Source: an uncultured Bacteroidota bacterium
GTDB lineage: Bacteria > Bacteroidota > Bacteroidia > Chitinophagales > Chitinophagaceae
NCBI GenBank assembly: GCA_963823125.1
Contig: CAWGKD010000022.1
Coordinates: 13,416-77,415 of the forward strand
DNA: 64,000 bases
Direction: 5' to 3'
Under the pieces are notes generated by a model. That model was not told the origin of the DNA and did no database searches. It saw nothing but the letters and a program-made list of their open reading frames with translations. Shown piece by piece: positions 7,664-64,000 of this stretch (position 1 is the first letter of the stretch; each line of letters starts with the position of its first letter). The translations under genes were made by a program, and so were the position numbers.

Positions 7664-8842
7664 TTATTGATTATTGAAAGTAACTGCATTATTTCTGTCT
7701 GCAATAGATTTTCTTCTTCTGCCTCTTTGATATAATATATTGTTCATCCAAGCCACGTTAGTTTGGGAATAAATATTTATACAAGTTGTAAGCGTACCAT
7801 TAAATGTTACAATGGGTCTTCCGCCACTTGCGTCAATTCTCGTAAATGAAGCCAATACATTACAGGTAGTTGCCGCATTTTGTAATGTTAGAATTGCTTT
7901 TACTGAACCACTATCTGATGTAAATAATTGTATTGCCCCTATTCGTGAATTAAAACAATTAAATGCGGTAGTAATGGTATATGTAACACCGTTAACAAGA
8001 GTGATAGTTCCGTTTGCCGTTACTGTTTGAGAAAAAGTAGCACAACTCCAACCCGAAGTACCAGCGAATGTTTCAGTACCATTTGCATTCATAGAAAGAG
8101 TTCCGGTACATGATAATAATGAATTGATGGTAGTTGTTGCAGATGCCGTATTGATTGTTATATTATTCCATATTACAGGATTTGTATTAAGAGTATTATT
8201 CCCAGACAATGTTAAAGTAGAACCAGTTGTAGTAATTGTTCCTGAAGAATAAGTAAGTGTTCCAGAACCATAATTTACGGCTCCAGAAACAGTAATAGTA
8301 CCAGCTAATGTTAATGATGTAAGTGTATTAGTGCCTGTACCCGTCCATGTCCCACCCGTTATTGTCGTAGCTGCTGAACCTGTCGTTGTATTGTTTATAG
8401 CTAAACCACCAACTGATAAAGTTTCTGATGTTGTATGATTTATGGTTGTGGTCGTTGTAGAACAAGTGAGCGTTCCTGAAATTATCCAGTTATTTGTAAG
8501 TAAAGTTTTTGTACTACTTACTGAAAATGTAACATTGCCGGGAAATGTCATTCCTCCCGAGTTTATTGTACTCGTTGCATTTATTGTTAACTGTCCTGCA
8601 TTTTGTGTTCCGGGTAATGAATAAGTATGGGCAGTATTATCCGTAAAATTCCCCGAAACCGTCCATGTTATATTTGAATTAATAGTGAGCAATGCTGTAT
8701 ATCCAGACGTAAAAGTTACCGATGCTGCTGCTGCTGTGGCTGTAATTGTGCAATTTGTATTCCCAAAAGTTCCTGCGCCATCGAAAGTAACTGCATCAGA
8801 TGAAGTTGGTGCAGCACCAACAGAAGTTCCTCCGGAAGTCAA
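7664..8842 (-). CDS. Thr/Ser/Gly-rich beta-helix-like fibre/adhesin (at least 392 aa)
   Basis: Low-complexity T/S/G/N-rich sequence (..GTLTYSSGTITTTGSTLTLSGNNTLN..). The track start is a TTG. The frame is open 24 codons further upstream with no ATG/GTG/TTG. Confidence 0.6.
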   Translation of the reverse strand: MTSGGTSVGAAPTSSDAVTFDGAGTFGNTNCTITATAAAASVTFTSGYTALLTINSNITWTVSGNFTDNTAHTYSLPGTQNAGQLTINATSTINSGGMTFPGNVTFSVSSTKTLLTNNWIISGTLTCSTTTTTINHTTSETLSVGGLAINNTTTGSAATTITGGTWTGTGTNTLTSLTLAGTITVSGAVNYGSGTLTYSSGTITTTGSTLTLSGNNTLNTNPVIWNNITINTASATTTINSLLSCTGTLSMNANGTETFAGTSGWSCATFSQTVTANGTITLVNGVTYTITTAFNCFNSRIGAIQLFTSDSGSVKAILTLQNAATTCNVLASFTRIDASGGRPIVTFNGTLTTCINIYSQTNVAWMNNILYQRGRRRKSIADRNNAVTFNNQ

Positions 8843-8921
8843 CGACCACGCCGTCGTCGTAGAATAATTTGCGCCTCCCGCACCACTTATAAAAAATCTG
8901 GCCGCAATAATATACCTCCTT

Positions 8922-9356
8922 TTATTTTACTTGTTCTAAATTTTGTTCTTTAAGTAATAATAGTAATTCATTCAACTCTTTTTCTGTTGCATCCTCTAAA
9001 AAAGTATGATTATCATGCACCAACTTTTCAGGGAAAGCCTTATCTGTTCTTGTAAACCATATCCATCTTTCATAAATCCCTAAATATAGATAACCAAACT
9101 TTTCAAATAATGGATTATAAACGATATTCCCTTCAAGCGGAACGCCATTCTTTCCATTTTCATCGTGTGGTTGAAACTCTAAAATTTCCTGAATCATTTT
9201 TTCTTTACTCATAATTTCTGTTTTTACTTTCACTTTATTTTTACAATTACCGCATTCAATAGTTACAAATCCACAAGCCACATTTATCTGTCCTGCTATT
9301 TTAGGAACTTGTATTGGTTTATGACATTTATTACAGTAAACAATCTTTGGTATCAT
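8922..9356 (-). CDS. Zinc-ribbon protein (144 aa)
   Basis: N-terminal CNKCHK...CGFVTIECGNCKNK, two CxxC pairs. Confidence 0.55.
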   Translation of the reverse strand: MIPKIVYCNKCHKPIQVPKIAGQINVACGFVTIECGNCKNKVKVKTEIMSKEKMIQEILEFQPHDENGKNGVPLEGNIVYNPLFEKFGYLYLGIYERWIWFTRTDKAFPEKLVHDNHTFLEDATEKELNELLLLLKEQNLEQVK

Positions 9357-9359
9357 ACA

Positions 9360-9713
9360 TTAAACTATTGCATTAATGAACCCTGTAATTACAACTACAT
9401 TAGCTACGCTGGCAAATGCTGTAACAACTGTTCCATTATCAAGTATTGCACCATCTACTACTAAAAATCTTCCTTGTTTAAAGGGTATATTTAAAATTAT
9501 ATTATCATCAGGAACGGTTGTGCCACCAAGTTCTATTGTTAATGTCACGTCTGCTGTATTTCCATTATACGCATAAAGCCAAATTTCATCCCATGATGAT
9601 GTACCTGAAACAGAGGTGTGAATTGTTGTTCCTACGGATGACGTAGCGACAACTTTTATACCCCTTCCATTTGTACTACCACTTAATTTATTTTTAGTAA
9701 CCGCTTGTGCCAT
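9360..9713 (-). CDS. Hypothetical small structural protein (117 aa)
   Basis: Track ORF, 3-nt gap to its neighbour. Gly/Thr/Val-rich, beta-type composition. Confidence 0.55.
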   Translation of the reverse strand: MAQAVTKNKLSGSTNGRGIKVVATSSVGTTIHTSVSGTSSWDEIWLYAYNGNTADVTLTIELGGTTVPDDNIILNIPFKQGRFLVVDGAILDNGTVVTAFASVANVVVITGFINAIV

Positions 9714-9732
9714 AATACAAAATTAAAATAGT

Positions 9733-10530
9733 TTACGAAAAAACCTGATTAAATAATACTGTTGCAAAACTATAATCAGCTATACTTGTACTATACGATG
9801 GGAATGTCATTACTGTTGCATCCGTACCCGCCAATGTCAATGAATTATTTACTGTTAAAACTTTACCGTTCACATAAACAGTTCCATTATATTGTGATGT
9901 GTCCCATGTTCCGGCGGCAGGGCTATTTACTGTCAATACAAGTATTATGCAAGTATTAGGTGCTAACGTCCAAATCAACCCTCCTCCATTTGCATTGATA
10001 GTTACTATTCCTGTTGAATCATTATCTACCAAATAACATTGACCAACCGATAACGTAGTAGCATCTGGAAGTACAAGCGTTTGAGTTGTCGAACCCGTAA
10101 ACTGTGTAAAATACGGAGATGCGTTTGTTAAAGTAGTTGTACTCCCTGCCGTTGCAACTGCCTGATAACCTAAATTAATAGATGGAGCAGTTACAATCCC
10201 TGTAAATACAGGCGAACTTTCGATATCAGTAAAAGTTTTTACGGTCATGGTAGCAGCAATCTGATCGCCAATAACTATTGATCTTGCACTTGTACTTTCC
10301 TGCGCTCTTACGATTGTAAGTGTATCAGTAGATATTCCGGTAACTCTTACAATTTCAGCATTGGTAGTAAGTGGATTTGCATTTGTAGCCCATACTGTCG
10401 CATTGAATGGAGGTGTAGGAAATAATGCTCCCTGACCAGCCGTTACAACAAGTGATGTACCAGAACTCGCAGGACTTGGAGCAGTCGCTACTAAAGAATA
10501 TGCAAGATTTTTATGTGCGTCAAAAGCCAT
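9733..10530 (-). CDS. Tail-fibre-like protein (265 aa)
   Basis: Ala/Thr/Gly/Ser-rich beta-type composition. Sits in the fibre cluster. Confidence 0.5.
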   Translation of the reverse strand: MAFDAHKNLAYSLVATAPSPASSGTSLVVTAGQGALFPTPPFNATVWATNANPLTTNAEIVRVTGISTDTLTIVRAQESTSARSIVIGDQIAATMTVKTFTDIESSPVFTGIVTAPSINLGYQAVATAGSTTTLTNASPYFTQFTGSTTQTLVLPDATTLSVGQCYLVDNDSTGIVTINANGGGLIWTLAPNTCIILVLTVNSPAAGTWDTSQYNGTVYVNGKVLTVNNSLTLAGTDATVMTFPSYSTSIADYSFATVLFNQVFS

Positions 10531-10539
10531 AATTTTATT

Positions 10540-11433
10540 TTATAAACTTGCGGTGTAAATCAAACTTTTATTATTTACTATATTACTTATATGCGCCTTT
10601 GATAAATTAAATTGTTCACACAACTTTGTTTGCATCCCATGTTCTTTACCCTTCTCACGAATAAAATTTATATCAGTTACAGAAAGTCTTGTTGGTTGTC
10701 TTAATGCTGCCGATCTGCGGTTTTCTGGGTTAGCAAAAAAATTCTTTGTTACTACTGAATTTTTAGCCCTGTTTTCTGGATTAGAAAAATATGCCTTTAC
10801 CCTTTCTGATTGCTTTGCTTGATTTTCGAGATTACCCCATCGCTTTTTAGCCCCGACTGACATATTTTTTCTAACCGATTCGGACGACAGAACATCGGTA
10901 AATTTTTTCTTAAAATCTGATTCACTGAACATCTTTTTAAGAGTTGCAGATGTTTTATTTTTAGCTTCTTCTGATCGCATAATACCCTTGTGCGCATCTG
11001 ATATTTTCTTTCTTACTTCTGGATTATCTCTTGCAATTTTAGATGCCTCCATAACTCTTTTTTTGTATTCAGGATTAGACATTAATTTTTTAGCCGTTTC
11101 AGACATCCGATTTCTTTCCTTTTTTGAAAACTTTCTCCCTCTTGATGGAGCAGTTGAATCAAACGTCATATTGTAAAACATATTTTTATTAATACACTCA
11201 TCTAATAAAATTTGCTCCTCTTTTTTAAGTTCTGGAATAGATACTTCCTTTAATATTTCAAAAACAAAAGAACCTTCTCTATATTTATTCCATGCTCTTT
11301 GCAGCCTTATACTATGATGCCTATTTGACCGCAAATCTCTTATATGCTCTTTAAACCTTTTGTTTATATTAACTGAAGAACCGATATATTTATTGCCATT
11401 AGCAACATTCCGTATTTCATATACTCCTGTCAT
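10540..11433 (-). CDS. GIY-YIG homing endonuclease with NUMOD-like repeats
   Basis: GVYEIRNVANGNKYIGSSVNINKRFKEH...R...N matches the GIY-(10)-YIG core. It is followed by repeated basic helix motifs (SEEAKNKTSATLKK, SESVRKNMSVGAKKRW, PENRAKNS...). Confidence 0.8.
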   Translation of the reverse strand: MTGVYEIRNVANGNKYIGSSVNINKRFKEHIRDLRSNRHHSIRLQRAWNKYREGSFVFEILKEVSIPELKKEEQILLDECINKNMFYNMTFDSTAPSRGRKFSKKERNRMSETAKKLMSNPEYKKRVMEASKIARDNPEVRKKISDAHKGIMRSEEAKNKTSATLKKMFSESDFKKKFTDVLSSESVRKNMSVGAKKRWGNLENQAKQSERVKAYFSNPENRAKNSVVTKNFFANPENRRSAALRQPTRLSVTDINFIREKGKEHGMQTKLCEQFNLSKAHISNIVNNKSLIYTASL

Positions 11434-58339: not shown

Positions 58340-58429
58340 AAAAAACAGCTAACTCTAATATAGATATTGATTTTTTTTGTTTATAAAAAGATAACTTGGT
58401 TATTAATTAAAATATATAATTTTACATCA

Positions 58430-58912
58430 ATGTTTGGGCGGCACAGAAAAAAAGAAGTTGAAGTAATCTTTGTTGAAGAAACGGAGATTATTATTGTGGA
58501 AGAACATGAGTATCACCGCCACCCGAAAGTAAGAATGGTATTAATTCAAAATTGTAATAACTCAAAATCAATTATTATGTCCCTATCAATTGTATCAAAT
58601 CAGAAAGCACAAATCATTATCGGTTTAGTGGATGCAACCACCTTAAATCCGGTTACGGCAACGTCAACAGGCGAAACCGAAGTAATAGACAATCTTTCGG
58701 TAGCAACCGTAGATGCGTCTAATAATGTTGTTGGGGTAGCAGCAGGAACGTGCAACCTTACCTCAACCGCAACCTGGACTTATACGGACGCAAATACAGG
58801 TCAACCAGTAACAACTACACTTTCAGTAGTTACCCCAATTACGGTTACGGCTGTGATTGTAGCTGAAACTGTTAATATGGTTGTTACTTTTGGAACACCA
58901 GTAGCCCAATAG
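58430..58912 (+). CDS. Protein with Ig-like (BIG2-type) C-terminal domain
   Basis: ...NNVVGVAAGTCNLTSTATWTYTD... resembles bacterial Ig-like group 2 strands. The track start is a TTG (58367). The ATG at 58430 is used here; the ATG at 58577 (MSLSIVSNQ...) is an alternative. Confidence 0.45.
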   Translation: MFGRHRKKEVEVIFVEETEIIIVEEHEYHRHPKVRMVLIQNCNNSKSIIMSLSIVSNQKAQIIIGLVDATTLNPVTATSTGETEVIDNLSVATVDASNNVVGVAAGTCNLTSTATWTYTDANTGQPVTTTLSVVTPITVTAVIVAETVNMVVTFGTPVAQ

Positions 58913-58969
58913 AAAGTTTCTCATAAACAGTAGTTTCATAATGGTTACGGAAAATCGGGCGGTATTTTT

Positions 58970-59260
58970 ATGCTGCCCTTTAATTGTCTTTGGTATATGA
59001 GTGAACATTATAAATTAGCGCAACTTAATTCATACTACTACACATGGTTAAGAAACAATGAGCAGAAAAAGGCTATGGCGCAGCTTCAGGAGGTTATCAC
59101 GCTGCACCCGTCCGAAGAAAGGCAAATCTGTAAACAGTTTGGGTGTGGCGCATCCCTGACCTTACAGGAAAGGCTTGCTGGCGATAAATGCACCTCACAC
59201 AGTACAGAGCAGCCAGCCGTTGATCTGCCAAAAGATGGCATCTATTTAGTTGTAGAGTAA
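58970..59260 (+). CDS. Hypothetical protein (96 aa; ATG at 58997 alternative)
   Basis: Track ORF in a locally GC-richer stretch, followed by a terminator-like hairpin. Coding status uncertain. Confidence 0.35.
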   Translation: MLPFNCLWYMSEHYKLAQLNSYYYTWLRNNEQKKAMAQLQEVITLHPSEERQICKQFGCGASLTLQERLAGDKCTSHSTEQPAVDLPKDGIYLVVE

Positions 59261-59273
59261 AAAAATGGTTTGT

Positions 59274-59303
59274 ACCCGTCAGCGATGGCGGGTTTGTTGT
59301 GTT
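59274..59303 (+). terminator. Terminator-like hairpin at the end of the rightward unit
   Basis: ACCCG-N10-CGGGT followed by TTGTTGTGTTT, 14 nt after the stop at 59260. Confidence 0.45.
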
Positions 59304-59490
59304 TAAAAAACAAATACTGCCGTATGTTAATGAGGTTTTAACTGAAAAATTGTGGTGATGGGTAAACGATATTAGAAGCAAGTGTTTAATTTCAGCACTT
59401 CTTCGGTTCAGGTATCTCTGGCCATCCCCACTCATCGTTTCATAATTGCCATTATGGTTACTGAATTAACTAACCACCACCACAAAGAAC

Positions 59491-59775
59491 TTACAAACCG
59501 TATGTTGCTGCCTTTACAGCCCACATAGCAGCTTCTTCATAGGCTGTTTGCGCTAACGACCAAAGACGAATAGCTTCACCTTTGGCGTTATCATTCCATT
59601 GCTTTTGTTTTACATCCCTAATGCCAAATTCGCAAAAATCAATAATGGATGCGGATTCTTTTTTAATATCATCCACATTTGACCTGATTTCTTTTTGTTC
59701 TACTACATTGAAACTTACTCTTATTCTACTTTCCCCCTTTGTTGGCGGCGGGGCAACGCCATTTTGTACTTCCAT
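59491..59775 (-). CDS. Hypothetical protein (94 aa)
   Basis: Track ORF. Confidence 0.5.
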   Translation of the reverse strand: MEVQNGVAPPPTKGESRIRVSFNVVEQKEIRSNVDDIKKESASIIDFCEFGIRDVKQKQWNDNAKGEAIRLWSLAQTAYEEAAMWAVKAATYGL

Positions 59776-59779
59776 TTTA

Positions 59780-60040
59780 TTATGATTTTTTGGTTAAAAA
59801 TTCATCTTCATCTCCTTCTAAATATGGCGGCAATTCTATCGTATCAATGCCAATTTTATTCATCTTTATTCTCAATGATTTTCCAGCAATAATCATTTCT
59901 TTTAACTGTTTTCTTGTTTCTGGATTCCAATTAATATTTTGGTCTTTAGATGTATCTTCTAATAATTCAATCTGGGATATAACAGCCATTGATAAAAATT
60001 TAGCTTCGTCTGGTTTTAAATAAAGTTGCTTTACTTCCAT
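59780..60040 (-). CDS. Hypothetical protein (86 aa)
   Basis: Track ORF. Confidence 0.5.
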   Translation of the reverse strand: MEVKQLYLKPDEAKFLSMAVISQIELLEDTSKDQNINWNPETRKQLKEMIIAGKSLRIKMNKIGIDTIELPPYLEGDEDEFLTKKS

Positions 60041-60083
60041 ATTATTTTAATTTTCAATCAGCATAAAAACTGTTTACTGTGTT

Positions 60084-60566
60084 CTATTGTTCTGATTTTA
60101 ATAAAAAATTATTTGAAATAACCTTAAAACTAATTGTTCGTTGATGGTTGCGTATAACAATTCCCTCTCTGTTTGAATTTTGATTTAATAAAGATTTACC
60201 GTCAGCAAATGAAATTAATTCATAAACGGTGTCTGGTAATTTAAAATCAGTATGTATGAACGGGACACTTTCTATATCAAACGATTTTATTAATTCCCTA
60301 AACTCATTTAATGGTAAGTATCTTTGTTCGTCAATATCAAAAACATTGAAAAATTTAACCTGTTGACCTTTTAGTTTATAAGGATTACCTTGTATACCTT
60401 CCCCGACACATTCACCTTGTAAACAAATATTCTTACCTGAATTTTTTATTTTTTCTTCAAGTTGTAAATGTCGTGCTATTTTCCAAAAAGTATTACCATC
60501 ATTTTCAATTAATTCAATATTCCTTGAACAAACACCAAATGTGCCATTATTTACATAATATGTTAT
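60084..60566 (-). pseudogene. ATP-dependent RNA ligase, C-terminal ~160 aa only (5'-truncated at the tandem array)
   Basis: The frame has no start codon, so it is not in the track. It reads ..SITYYVNNGTFGVCSRNIEL...ICLQGECVGEGIQGNPYKL...VPFIHTDF...NREGIVIRNHQRTISFKVISNNFLLKSEQ*. GEcvGegIQ.N, REGIVIR and SFKVISN.FLL resemble nucleotidyltransferase motifs III-V of DraRnl/Rnl5-type ligases. Motif I (KxDG) is missing. Confidence 0.55.
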
Positions 60567-63500
60567 GGATATAAGTCGAATTTATACAGGAATTGCATGA
60601 AATAATGGACAAAAATGGGTAGAAAAATCATTTTCATGTTATAAGTCTATTTTTAGGCCTTACCCAAGAAATGGAAAGAAATTTGAAACATCTGGGTGGC
60701 AACACTCGACAACCAACATGTAGTTTATTGGTTTTTTAATTCTAAAAAAAGGAAACGAAGTCTGAAAAACACGAGACTTGACATGGTGTCATGATATGAT
60801 ACTTAGAGGCTGTGGTAAAAAGTTGACAAGGTTTCGCAAAAGTTGTCACGTACGTTGCTTAGAAACCGAAGCATCTCCGAGGAATGAACGTGGTTTCGAG
60901 AGGGAACGGAGCAGGTTAGAAGCCGAAGTGACGGTTGAATCGTCGTTTGACCTTGAACCATTTTGTACACTCAACATACGACATAGCATGTTCGATGTTA
61001 CAATTTGGTATTTTTCTGGGTCCGTTTGCTATTTTTAATTCATTAATTGCATTTCTAGGCCTTTTAATGGATATAAGTCAAATTTGTACTGCAAGTGCAT
61101 GAAATAATGGACAAAAATGGGTAGAAAAATCATATTCATGTTGTTGAGTCTATTTTTAGGCCTTACCCAAGAAATGGAAAGAAATTTGAAACATCTGGGT
61201 GGCAACACTCGACCACCAACATGTAGTTTATTGGTTTTTTAATTCTAAAAAAAGGAAACGAAGTCTGAAAAACACGAGACTTGACATGGTGTCATGATAT
61301 GATACTTAGAGGCTGTGGTAAAAAGTTGACAAGGTTTCGCAAAAGTTGTCACGTACGTTGCTTAGAAACCGAAGCATCTCCGAGGAATGAACGTGGTTTC
61401 GAGAGGGAACGGAGCAGGTTAGAAGCCGAAGTGACGGTTGAATCGTCGTTTGACCTTGAACCATTTTGTACACTCAACATACGACATAGCATGTTCGATG
61501 TTACAATTTGGCATTTTTCTGGGTCCGTTTGCTATTTTTAATTCATTAATTGCATTTCTAGGCCTTTTAATGGATATAAGTCAAATTTGTACTGCAAGTG
61601 CATAGAAATAATGGACAAAAATGGGTAGAAAAATCATATTCATGTTGTTGAGTCTATTTTTAGGCCTTACCCAAGAAATGGAAAGAAATTTGAAACATCT
61701 GGGTGGCAACACTCGACAACCAACATGTAGTTTATTGGTTTTTTAATTCTAAAAAAAGGAAACGAAGTCTGAAAAACACGAGACTTGACATGGTGTCATG
61801 ATATGATACTAGAGGCTGTGGTAAAAAGTTGAGAAGGTTTCGCAAAAGTTGTCACGTACGATGCTTAGAAACCGAAGCATCTCCGAGGAATGAACGTGGT
61901 TTCGAGGGAACGAGCAGGTTAGATGCCGAAGTGACGGTTGAATCGTCGTTTGACCTTGAAACATTTTCTACACTCAACATACAACATAGCATATTCGATG
62001 TTAAAATTTGGCATTTTTCTGGGTCCGTTTGCTATTTTTAATTCATTAAGTGCATTTCTAGGCTTTTAATGGATATAAGTCAAATTTGTACTGCAAGTGC
62101 ATGAAATAATGGACAAAAATGGGTAGAAAAATCATATTCATGTTGTTGAGTCTATTTTTAGGCCTTACCCAAGAAATGGAAAGAAATTTGAAACATCTGG
62201 GTGGCAACACTCGACCACCAACATGTAGCTTATTGGTTTTTTAATTCTAAAAAAAAGCAAACGAAGTCTGAAAAACATGAGACTTGACATGGTGTCATGA
62301 TATGATACTTAGAGGCTGTGGTAAAAAGTTGAGAAGGTTTCGCAAAAGTTGTCACGTACGATGCTTAGAAACCGAAGCATCTCCGAGGAATGAATCGTGG
62401 TTTCGAGAGGGAACGGAGCAGGTTTGAAGCCGAAGTGACGGTTGAATCATCGTTTGACCTTGAAACTTTTTGTACACTCAACATACAACATAGCATGTTC
62501 GATGTTACAATTTGGCATTTTTCTGGGTCCGTTTGCTATTTTTAATTCATTAATTGCATTTCTAGGCTTTTTAATGGATATAAGTCAAATTTGTACTGCA
62601 AGTGCATGAAATAATGGACAAAAATGGGTAGAAAAATCATATTCATGTTGTTGAGTCTATTTTTAGGCCTTACCCAAGAAATGGAAAGAAATTTGAAACA
62701 TCTGGGTGGCAACACTCGACCACCAACATGTAATTTATTGGTTTTTTAATTCTAAAAAAAGGAAACGAAGTCTGAAAAACACGAGACTTGCCATGGTGTC
62801 ATGATATGATACGTAGAGGCCGTGGTAAAAATTTGAGAAGGTTTCCAAAAGTTGTCACGTACGATGCTTAGAAACCGAAGCATCTCCGAGAAAGAATCAT
62901 GGTTTCGAGAGGGAACGGAGCAGGTTAGAAGCCGAAGTGACGGTTGAATCATCGTTTGACCTTGCAACTATTTTGTACACTCAACATACGACATAGCATA
63001 TTCGATGTCCAAATTTGGCATTTTTCTGGGTCCGTTTGCTATTTTTAATTCATTAAGTGCATTTCTAGGCTTTTAATGGATATAAGTCAAATTTGAACTG
63101 CAAGTAGATGAAATAATGGACAAAAATTGGTAGAAAAATCATATTCATGTTTTTGAGTCTATTTTTAGGCCTTACCCAAGAAATGAAAAGAAATTTGAAA
63201 CATCTGGGTGGCAACACTCGACAACCAACATGTAGCTAATTGGTTTTTTAATTCTAAAAAAAGCAAACGAAGTCTGAAAAACATGAGACTTGCCATGGTG
63301 TCATGATATGATACGTAGAGGCCGTGGTAAAAAATTGAGAAGGTTTCGCAAAAGTTGTCACGCACGATGCTTAGAAACCGAAGCATCTCCGAGGAAGAAT
63401 CATGGTTTCGAGAGGGAACGGATCAGGTTTGAAGCCGAAGTGACGGTTGAATCATCGTTTGACCTTGCAACTTTTTCTACACTCAACATACGACATAGCA

Positions 63501-64000
63501 TATTCGATGTCCAAATTTGGCATTTTTCTGGGTCCGTTTGCTATTTTTAATTCATTAAGTGCATTTCTAGGCTTTTAATGGATATAAGTCAAATTTGAAC
63601 TGCAAGTAGATGAAATAATGGACAAAAATTGGTAGAAAAATCATATTCATGTTTTTGAGTCTATTTTTAGGCCTTACCCAAGAAATGAAAAGAAATTTGA
63701 AACATCTGGGTGGCAACACTCGACAACCAACACGTAGCTAATTGGTTTTTTAATTCTAAAAAAAGGAAACGAAGTCTGAAAAACATGAGACTTGACCATG
63801 TAAGAGTGTCGATGATATGATACGTAGAGGCTGTGGTAAAAAATTGAGAAGGTGTCGCAAAGTTGTCACGCACGATGCTTAGAAACCGAAGCATCTTCGA
63901 GGAATGAATCGTGGTTTCGAGAGGGAACGGATCAGGTTTGAAGCCGAAGTGACGGTTGAATCATCGTTTGACCTTGAAACTTTTTGTACAATCAACATAC
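60567..64000. repeat. Tandem array of a ~502-bp non-coding unit, 6 full copies plus 1 partial, continuing beyond the window
   Basis: Unit starts (GGATATAAGTC) lie at 60567, 61069, 61572, 62071, 62576, 63078 and 63580. The copies differ by substitutions and 1-3-nt indels that break every ORF in at least some copies. Confidence 0.95.

Follow-up and report, generated by a model that had tools for sequence, protein, structure and literature searches.

Sequence comparisons strongly indicate that positions 60084–60569 of the window, the 64,000-nucleotide stretch of DNA analysed here, hold a fragment of an Rnl5-type ATP-dependent RNA ligase gene that contains motifs III–V. The fragment abuts a 503-bp tandem array, and the break between the two lies within five nucleotides that they have in common. 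By alignment with relatives, the break point coincides with the intein insertion site of the ligase family. The locus is very probably a real, inactive remnant, and its likely origin is illegitimate, microhomology-mediated joining, plausibly after a homing-endonuclease cut.

Identification of an RNA ligase gene remnant

The window corresponds to bases 13416–77415 of contig C22 (81,638 bp), and the assembly comprises 23 contigs and 3.55 Mb. Because it contains small near-duplicate contigs and indel differences among repeat copies, the assembly appears to be a long-read metagenome bin. C22 is a phage with genes for a portal protein, virion proteins and a primase/helicase; the only relatives that could be recognised, Cellulophaga and Flavobacterium phages, share ~23% portal identity with it. 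The ligase remnant and its motifs are located as follows.

60084–60569, minus strand: Rnl5-type (NgrRnl/DRB0094, TIGR02306-like) RNA ligase remnant, 161 sense codons (SITYYVNNG...LLKSEQ) plus TAG
60384–60422, minus strand: nucleotidyltransferase motif III region, LQGECVGEGIQGN
60150–60170, minus strand: motif IV, REGIVIR
60111–60131, minus strand: motif V, SFKVISN

The original prediction had described a minus-strand frame open to the TAG and free of ATG, GTG and TTG, and translation gave the same result. The frame runs uninterrupted from an array-derived TAA at 60582–60584 down to the TAG at 60084–60086; none of the three codons occurs in the 165 codons between these stops (60087–60581, minus strand) or in the 162 codons, TAG included, of 60084–60569. 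From the serine at 60567–60569 on, the remnant reads SITYYVNNGTFGVCSRN...SFKVISNNFLLKSEQ. The same segment in 18 relatives contains 3–18 ATG, GTG or TTG codons. These codons make up 3.5% on average in the long genes of this phage, and at the phage's own codon frequencies the chance of finding none in 160 codons is ~0.004. Their absence may be due to chance, to AT-biased codon use, or to selection against making a ligase fragment.

The resemblance of motifs III–V to those of ATP-dependent RNA ligases had also been noted from the letters alone, with a profile search proposed as a check, and the matches obtained agree with it. The remnant matched Pfam RNA_ligase PF09414 (E = 5.1e-22, profile positions 14–170 of 171), phrog_968 'RNA ligase' (E = 3.2e-32, profile positions 248–393 of 398), NCBIfam TIGR02306 of the DRB0094 type (E = 1.2e-14), and Naegleria gruberi NgrRnl (PDB 5cot/6vt4 and others; E = 2.4e-28, chain residues 176–336). 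Scored with a family profile made from 17 full-length relatives in phages, it reached 229.6 bits over positions 175–334 of 335. Its TIGR02306 score of 54 bits is below the cut-off of 151.15 bits, as against 196.9 bits for the full-length L002 relative. All 38 family-conserved positions (at least 85% conserved among 215 homologues) are kept, and the interior contains no stop and no frameshift. Like Rnl5-type ligases (NgrRnl, PDB 5cot; DraRnl/DRB0094; TIGR02306; phrog_968), the remnant thus keeps motifs III, IV and V; unlike them, it has no OB domain (PF21189), linker, motif I lysine or start codon, and appears to be what is left of a gene rather than an enzyme.

Missing N-terminal half

When intact, a gene of the Rnl5 family encodes a nick-sealing RNA ligase comparable to NgrRnl of Naegleria and DraRnl of Deinococcus. 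Relatives with an intact gene include 17 IMG/VR loci (36–61% identity to the remnant); metagenome protein P0001 is 72% identical, and full-length phage relatives are 55–72% identical. The full genes span 337–394 codons in 16 of the 17 loci and 447 codons in the most distant one. Intact relatives have an N-terminal OB domain (PF21189; MERKLASI...), followed by ...YVTEKLDGSS(A/S)TFY...FGVCSRN.... The remnant is missing ~175–200 N-terminal codons, comprising the OB domain, the linker and the motif I lysine, which is the adenylylated residue. The frame position where relatives have EKLDG is occupied by *IRLI, and motif I, KxDG, is therefore absent. Having no start codon, the remnant could not be produced by ordinary translation, and since it has neither the motif I lysine nor the OB domain, it would not ligate even if it were made.

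No N-terminal part was recovered by a six-frame unfiltered hmmsearch of C22 73400–75100 (the remnant and array copies 1–2), which returned only profile positions 175–334. There was no second phrog_968 match in the whole assembly (23 contigs), no tblastn match to the N-terminal halves of relatives in the 23 contigs, and no PF21189 OB domain anywhere in the assembly at E ≤ 10. The sequence past 64000, proposed earlier as a place to look for an N-terminal ligase fragment, contained none up to the end of C22, which lies inside the array. A concealed N-terminal half, within the array or masked by an indel, was rejected, as the six-frame profile search gave the C-terminal match only; a by-eye resemblance (FLS...K.D spacing) was attributed to chance. 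The suggestion that correcting an indel near 60560 might expose an intact start was not borne out either, the same search giving no start. Since no indel correction yields a start, the 5′ half has either been deleted or lies in unassembled DNA past the array, and we infer that on balance it was deleted and not displaced. A counterpoint to deletion is that C22 stops inside the array, its far side being beyond the assembly.

The closest relative of the remnant (72% identity) is L131:9588–10606, on the plus strand of a 60-kb phage contig. Between its OB and nucleotidyltransferase domains, the coding sequence of this ligase is divided into two ORFs that overlap in ATGA, owing either to a single-base error of assembly or to a genuine frameshift. 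P0112 and P0203, considered as other natural 'decapitated' ligases, were rejected as a scaffold gap and a contig edge.

Junction with the tandem array

The sequences at and beyond the junction are as follows.

60565–60569, no strand assigned: junction microhomology ATGGA (TCCAT on the gene strand), common to the ligase and to the start of every array unit
60570–60584, minus strand: array-derived in-frame codons TAA ATT CGA CTT ATA, in place of the motif I residues K-L-D-G-S
60565–64000 (C22 73980–81638, locus L137), no strand assigned: 503-bp tandem array, 6.8 copies in the window

The original prediction had placed the array in the position of motif I, with an in-frame TAA five codons upstream of the first ligase-like residue. 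Base-level comparison bears out both, that residue being Ser 60567–60569; the prediction also expected motif I to sit immediately upstream of the ligase-like sequence, and this is supported with a small correction, as homology begins at the second Ser after KLDG and not right after the Gly. Relatives read GAA AAA YTN GAY GGN | TCN TCN GCN ACN TTY TAY, and the window reads TAA ATT CGA CTT ATA TCC ATA ACA TAT TAT. Ligase homology starts at the TCC (second Ser, 60567–60569), and array homology stops after TCCAT, which in the ligase is the Ser codon TCC and the first two nucleotides of the next codon. The break falls somewhere inside the five nucleotides 60565–60569. At a random junction, microhomology of at least 5 nt has an estimated chance of ~0.005.

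The array consists of at least 15.2 head-to-tail copies up to the end of C22, inside copy 16, and extends over at least 7.7 kb, ~10% of the contig. In the phase GGATATAAGTC, the unit begins at 60567. Copies are 88–100% alike and differ at 2 to 61 alignment columns, with variants spread in mosaic patterns; copies 6 and 10 are almost the same, with 2 differing columns. Within its first ~90 nt, copy 1 carries 9 private differences, whereas over the remaining ~410 nt just one column separates it from copy 2. Such a distribution is that of a real array edge escaping homogenisation, as real arrays are aberrant at their edges because the outermost part cannot join in unequal exchange.

These features bear on whether the junction is an artefact of assembly or library preparation, the phage having an intact ligase and the array coming from another molecule or from a minority variant via chimeric long reads. 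Such an origin would fit an assembly that resembles a long-read metagenome bin, with its near-duplicate small contigs and repeat-copy indels, as well as the perfect conservation of the remnant, the end at 60054 of an independent short-read contig of the same phage, and an array seen nowhere else in the collections searched. We nevertheless consider it distinctly unlikely: a 5-nt junction microhomology is not expected of blunt ligation chimeras, the differences in copy 1 follow the real edge pattern, the supposed intact 5′ half is on no contig, and the array G+C (0.35–0.37) is near that of the phage.

Searches with the array unit gave no Rfam match on either strand at E ≤ 1, no intron and no tRNA; its ORFs had no Pfam or PHROG matches and no record in exact-protein look-ups. 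The longest frame in the unit (87 codons) is disrupted in most copies by indels that they share, and no reading frame persists through all copies. No homologues of the unit were found in phage records or in 60 related genomes, its exact 18–19-mers revealed no relative in IMG/VR, and metagenome and GTDB genome collections returned chance 19–22-mers only. A known RNA, tRNA, intron or coding gene was rejected as the identity of the unit for want of Rfam, tRNA, Pfam or PHROG support and of any folding excess; an origin from an intein or endonuclease gene was rejected in the absence of a tblastn match.

A link between an RNA-joining enzyme and an array of RNAs had been raised earlier as speculation. 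In such a functional unit, the ligase would act on array RNAs. The adjacency itself and one base pair of a small hairpin (columns 445/465), which varies among A-U, G-U and G-C, would accord with it. The proposal is nonetheless close to refuted: the remnant has no catalytic lysine, OB domain or start codon; the array has no Rfam family and no tRNA; on either strand its folding energy resembles that of shuffled sequence (z = −0.33 and −0.24); and comparison of the 15 copies gave a covariation term of 0.08 and a single compensatory pair among the 126 predicted. That sole compensatory pair lies in the hairpin RACAU-N11-AUGUY (columns 445–449 / 461–465). The unit also contains the palindrome TGACA-TGG-TGTCA.

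Inteins of relatives close to the ligase break point

That the break coincides with the intein insertion site of the ligase family was absent from the original prediction and emerges from alignment with relatives. The point equivalent to the insertion, at the KLDG|S boundary, is 60572|60573, and the break is 3–8 nt away. P0017, MNYVKIKSIEKINNESLLYDIEVDKTHCFFANDILVHN|SSATFYINND..., is a split-intein C-half fused to the ligase at the residue right after KLDG. P0017 was searched against 1.84 billion cluster representatives, and among the best 150, which were classified, 7 have contiguous inteins at KLDG|S, 20 have an intein C-half followed by the C-terminal ligase part, and 78 are intein-free. 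The occupants of KLDG|S in Rnl5-type ligase relatives include LAGLIDADG inteins, mini-inteins and split 'fractured' forms, which makes this boundary of the phage enzymes a much-used homing site for inteins. The open literature searched contained no description of an intein at this site in these enzymes.

The contiguous arrangement is seen in P0132 (698 aa), which comprises an OB domain, an intein N-terminus, LAGLIDADG_2 (E = 1.7e-27), an intein C-terminus, and RNA_ligase from Pfam position 12. L132, the locus of P0017, contains a complete 'fractured' RNA ligase gene (8111–10600, plus strand) and lies on a 306-kb phage contig. Its first gene has the OB domain and ends ...YVTEKLDG|CLDGNT..., the N-terminal part of the ligase joined to an intein N-half; the middle is a free-standing 335-aa endonuclease-like ORF with weak PD-(D/E)xK-type similarity, an EVNGDYWH motif and a weak PvuRts1I-like match; and the last gene carries the intein C-half, ...ILVHN|SSATFY..., and the C-terminal ligase part. 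In fractured genes (Dassa et al. 2009, PMC2677866), the intein is split and a free-standing homing endonuclease gene separates its two parts; a DNA ligase is among the eight enzyme types listed in that work, but an RNA ligase is not. Like fractured and LAGLIDADG-intein genes, the present locus is interrupted at a conserved catalytic motif, with the homing site of its relatives, KLDG|S, 3–8 nt from the break. Unlike them, the window lacks Hint or intein blocks as well as an endonuclease gene, and array DNA takes the place of the intein C-half and motif I. The intein family PF14890 is absent from the whole assembly, and tblastn with the intein N-halves, C-halves and endonuclease of relatives detected no remnant in C22.

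A second split-intein site lies ~30 residues upstream of motif I, where ...ILVHN|CQNL... replaces ERVQNL (boundary ER|CQNL). Its carriers are P0005, P0014, P0047, P0085 and P0101.

Proposed origin of the remnant

In the origin that we favour, a double-strand break would have been made at or next to the homing site of an intein-free ligase allele and repaired illegitimately, for example after a cut during co-infection with an intein-carrying phage, when no homologous donor for repair was present. The kept end of the ligase would have been joined, via the 5-nt ATGGA, to the outer copy of a 503-bp array lying upstream, and this joining would have removed the 5′ half of the ligase gene together with its promoter region.

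The agent of the break is a separate matter, and we propose a homing endonuclease only tentatively. Homing endonucleases, such as the LAGLIDADG enzymes of inteins, cut intein- or intron-free alleles at or beside the insertion point. For I-Bth0305I, a Vsr-like homing endonuclease, cutting immediately beside its insertion site is described in the cited work (PMC3239194). In T6, breaks provoked by the homing endonuclease SegB result in tandem repeats of 718 bp, microhomology at the junction and a truncated gene (PMC13096335), and this laboratory result makes an association of a homing site, a truncated gene and a tandem array plausible. Like the T6 SegB amplification (Chihara et al. 2026, PMC13096335), the present locus has a sub-kilobase tandem unit, a gene truncated at the repeat boundary, and junction microhomology, and its array lies in a phage accessory or anti-defence region, as in T6 and in the T4 'accordion' tifA (PMC9391042). 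Unlike in the T6 case, the repeat unit does not include the truncated gene and contains no recognisable gene, tRNA, or Rfam, Pfam or PHROG match, the vicinity lacks an endonuclease gene, and the copies, rather than being identical, have diverged by up to ~12%.

Several points count against this origin. The agreement with the intein site was spotted after the fact (~1% chance of coincidence), and neither an endonuclease nor an intein was found in the phage or in the assembled host genome. The loss around the break would also have to be highly asymmetric, with no more than 8 nt gone from one side and 600 nt or more from the other.

We rate as rather unlikely a simple deletion or slippage event between ATGGA repeats present by chance, without an endonuclease and with coincidental closeness to the intein site. 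Microhomology-mediated deletions require no targeted break, and no endonuclease gene was found in C22, both in line with such an event. The end point, however, lies no more than ~8 nt from an intein site, of which two are known in the gene, and by a post hoc estimate a random break in a gene of ~1 kb would fall so near either of them in ~1% of cases; moreover, endonuclease-bearing inteins occupy the site in many lineages.

An interrupted rather than decapitated gene is unlikely. The N-terminal half (OB domain...KLDGS) would then lie just past the unassembled end of the array, with the array, or a single ~500-bp element later amplified between ATGGA repeats, having been inserted into the ligase gene at the homing site. 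C22 does end inside array copy 16, the ligase remnant is undecayed, and all units begin with the ATGGA that ends the ligase part, as if a 5-nt duplication flanked one insert. Against this, the N-terminal half is on none of the 23 contigs, both C22 ends included; the unit has no terminal inverted repeats, no Rfam intron match on either strand, and no match to intein or endonuclease sequences; and, should C22 be circular, the non-coding 570 nt at its start contain no ligase sequence.

Returning to illegitimate joining, the remnant keeps all 38 conserved positions with no decay, and the truncation would therefore be recent relative to the divergence of the array copies. The array probably predates the fusion, which would be recent, because the copies have diverged by up to 12%, the edge copy is the most aberrant, and the remnant is undecayed. 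A broken accessory gene is ordinary by itself. The locus is of interest as a candidate natural case of a homing site acting as a genome breakpoint beside a tandem array, for which the laboratory demonstration (T6 SegB) is only recent.

Neighbouring genes and genomic setting

Two genes follow the ligase remnant.

59780–60040, minus strand: 86-aa gene, directly downstream of the ligase remnant on the same strand, no family match
59491–59775, minus strand: 94-aa gene with an Acb2/Tad1 hairpin domain (PF24729, E = 9.6e-8, 32.5 bits vs a cut-off of 27)

In this minus-strand block the ligase remnant comes first, then the 86-aa gene, and the 94-aa Acb2-like gene last. The Acb2/Tad1 hairpin domain family consists of phage sponges that bind immune signalling nucleotides. 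From its domain match, the 94-aa protein is a candidate phage cyclic-nucleotide sponge against CBASS- or Thoeris-type defences. It has more than 140 relatives on IMG/VR contigs, with ~45–53% identity; Acb2-like loci were found to contain no ligase. For the 86-aa gene no relatives were found in the collections searched, and the neighbours of ligase genes in IMG/VR have nothing in common with C22. Searches with the left-end gene and the portal for a related phage with an intact locus were empty or gave matches too distant (~23% identity), and the collections hold no close relative of the C22 phage to reveal the ancestral state.

An RNA-repair ligase suits an anti-defence block, and its loss may therefore matter for host range. 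The locus flags a small block of this kind (RNA-repair ligase, 86-aa gene, Acb2-like sponge) in an orphan flavobacterial phage that also holds an orphan repeat of at least 7.7 kb. A further-reaching version of the proposed origin, in which remodelling driven by a homing endonuclease from the intein family of this ligase destroyed the gene and also seeded or extended a non-coding 503-bp 'accordion' kept for the neighbouring anti-defence genes, is very unlikely. If it were true, the array would be a multi-copy promoter, a decoy or a source of regulatory RNA for the Acb2-like and 86-aa genes, and the absence of start codons would reflect selection against a dominant-negative ligase fragment.

The left end of the contig, C22 1–570, is non-coding and begins with a G+C-rich, hairpin-like stretch, CCCCAATTAAAGCGAAGCCGGTGGCTTTGGGG; unrelated small genes follow. 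It shows no similarity to the array, and the two contig ends therefore do not overlap. A short-read Logan contig from run ERR11594406 is 100% identical to 58415–60054 and stops at 60054, 30 nt short of the stop codon of the ligase remnant. Its end may be a branch point in the assembly graph (population heterogeneity) or a coverage gap. Where the plus-strand early genes and the minus-strand Acb2-like gene converge, the gap between them contains an imperfect inverted repeat (window 59350–59485) with 15-nt arms, 87% complementary and 106 nt apart, which may be a two-way terminator.
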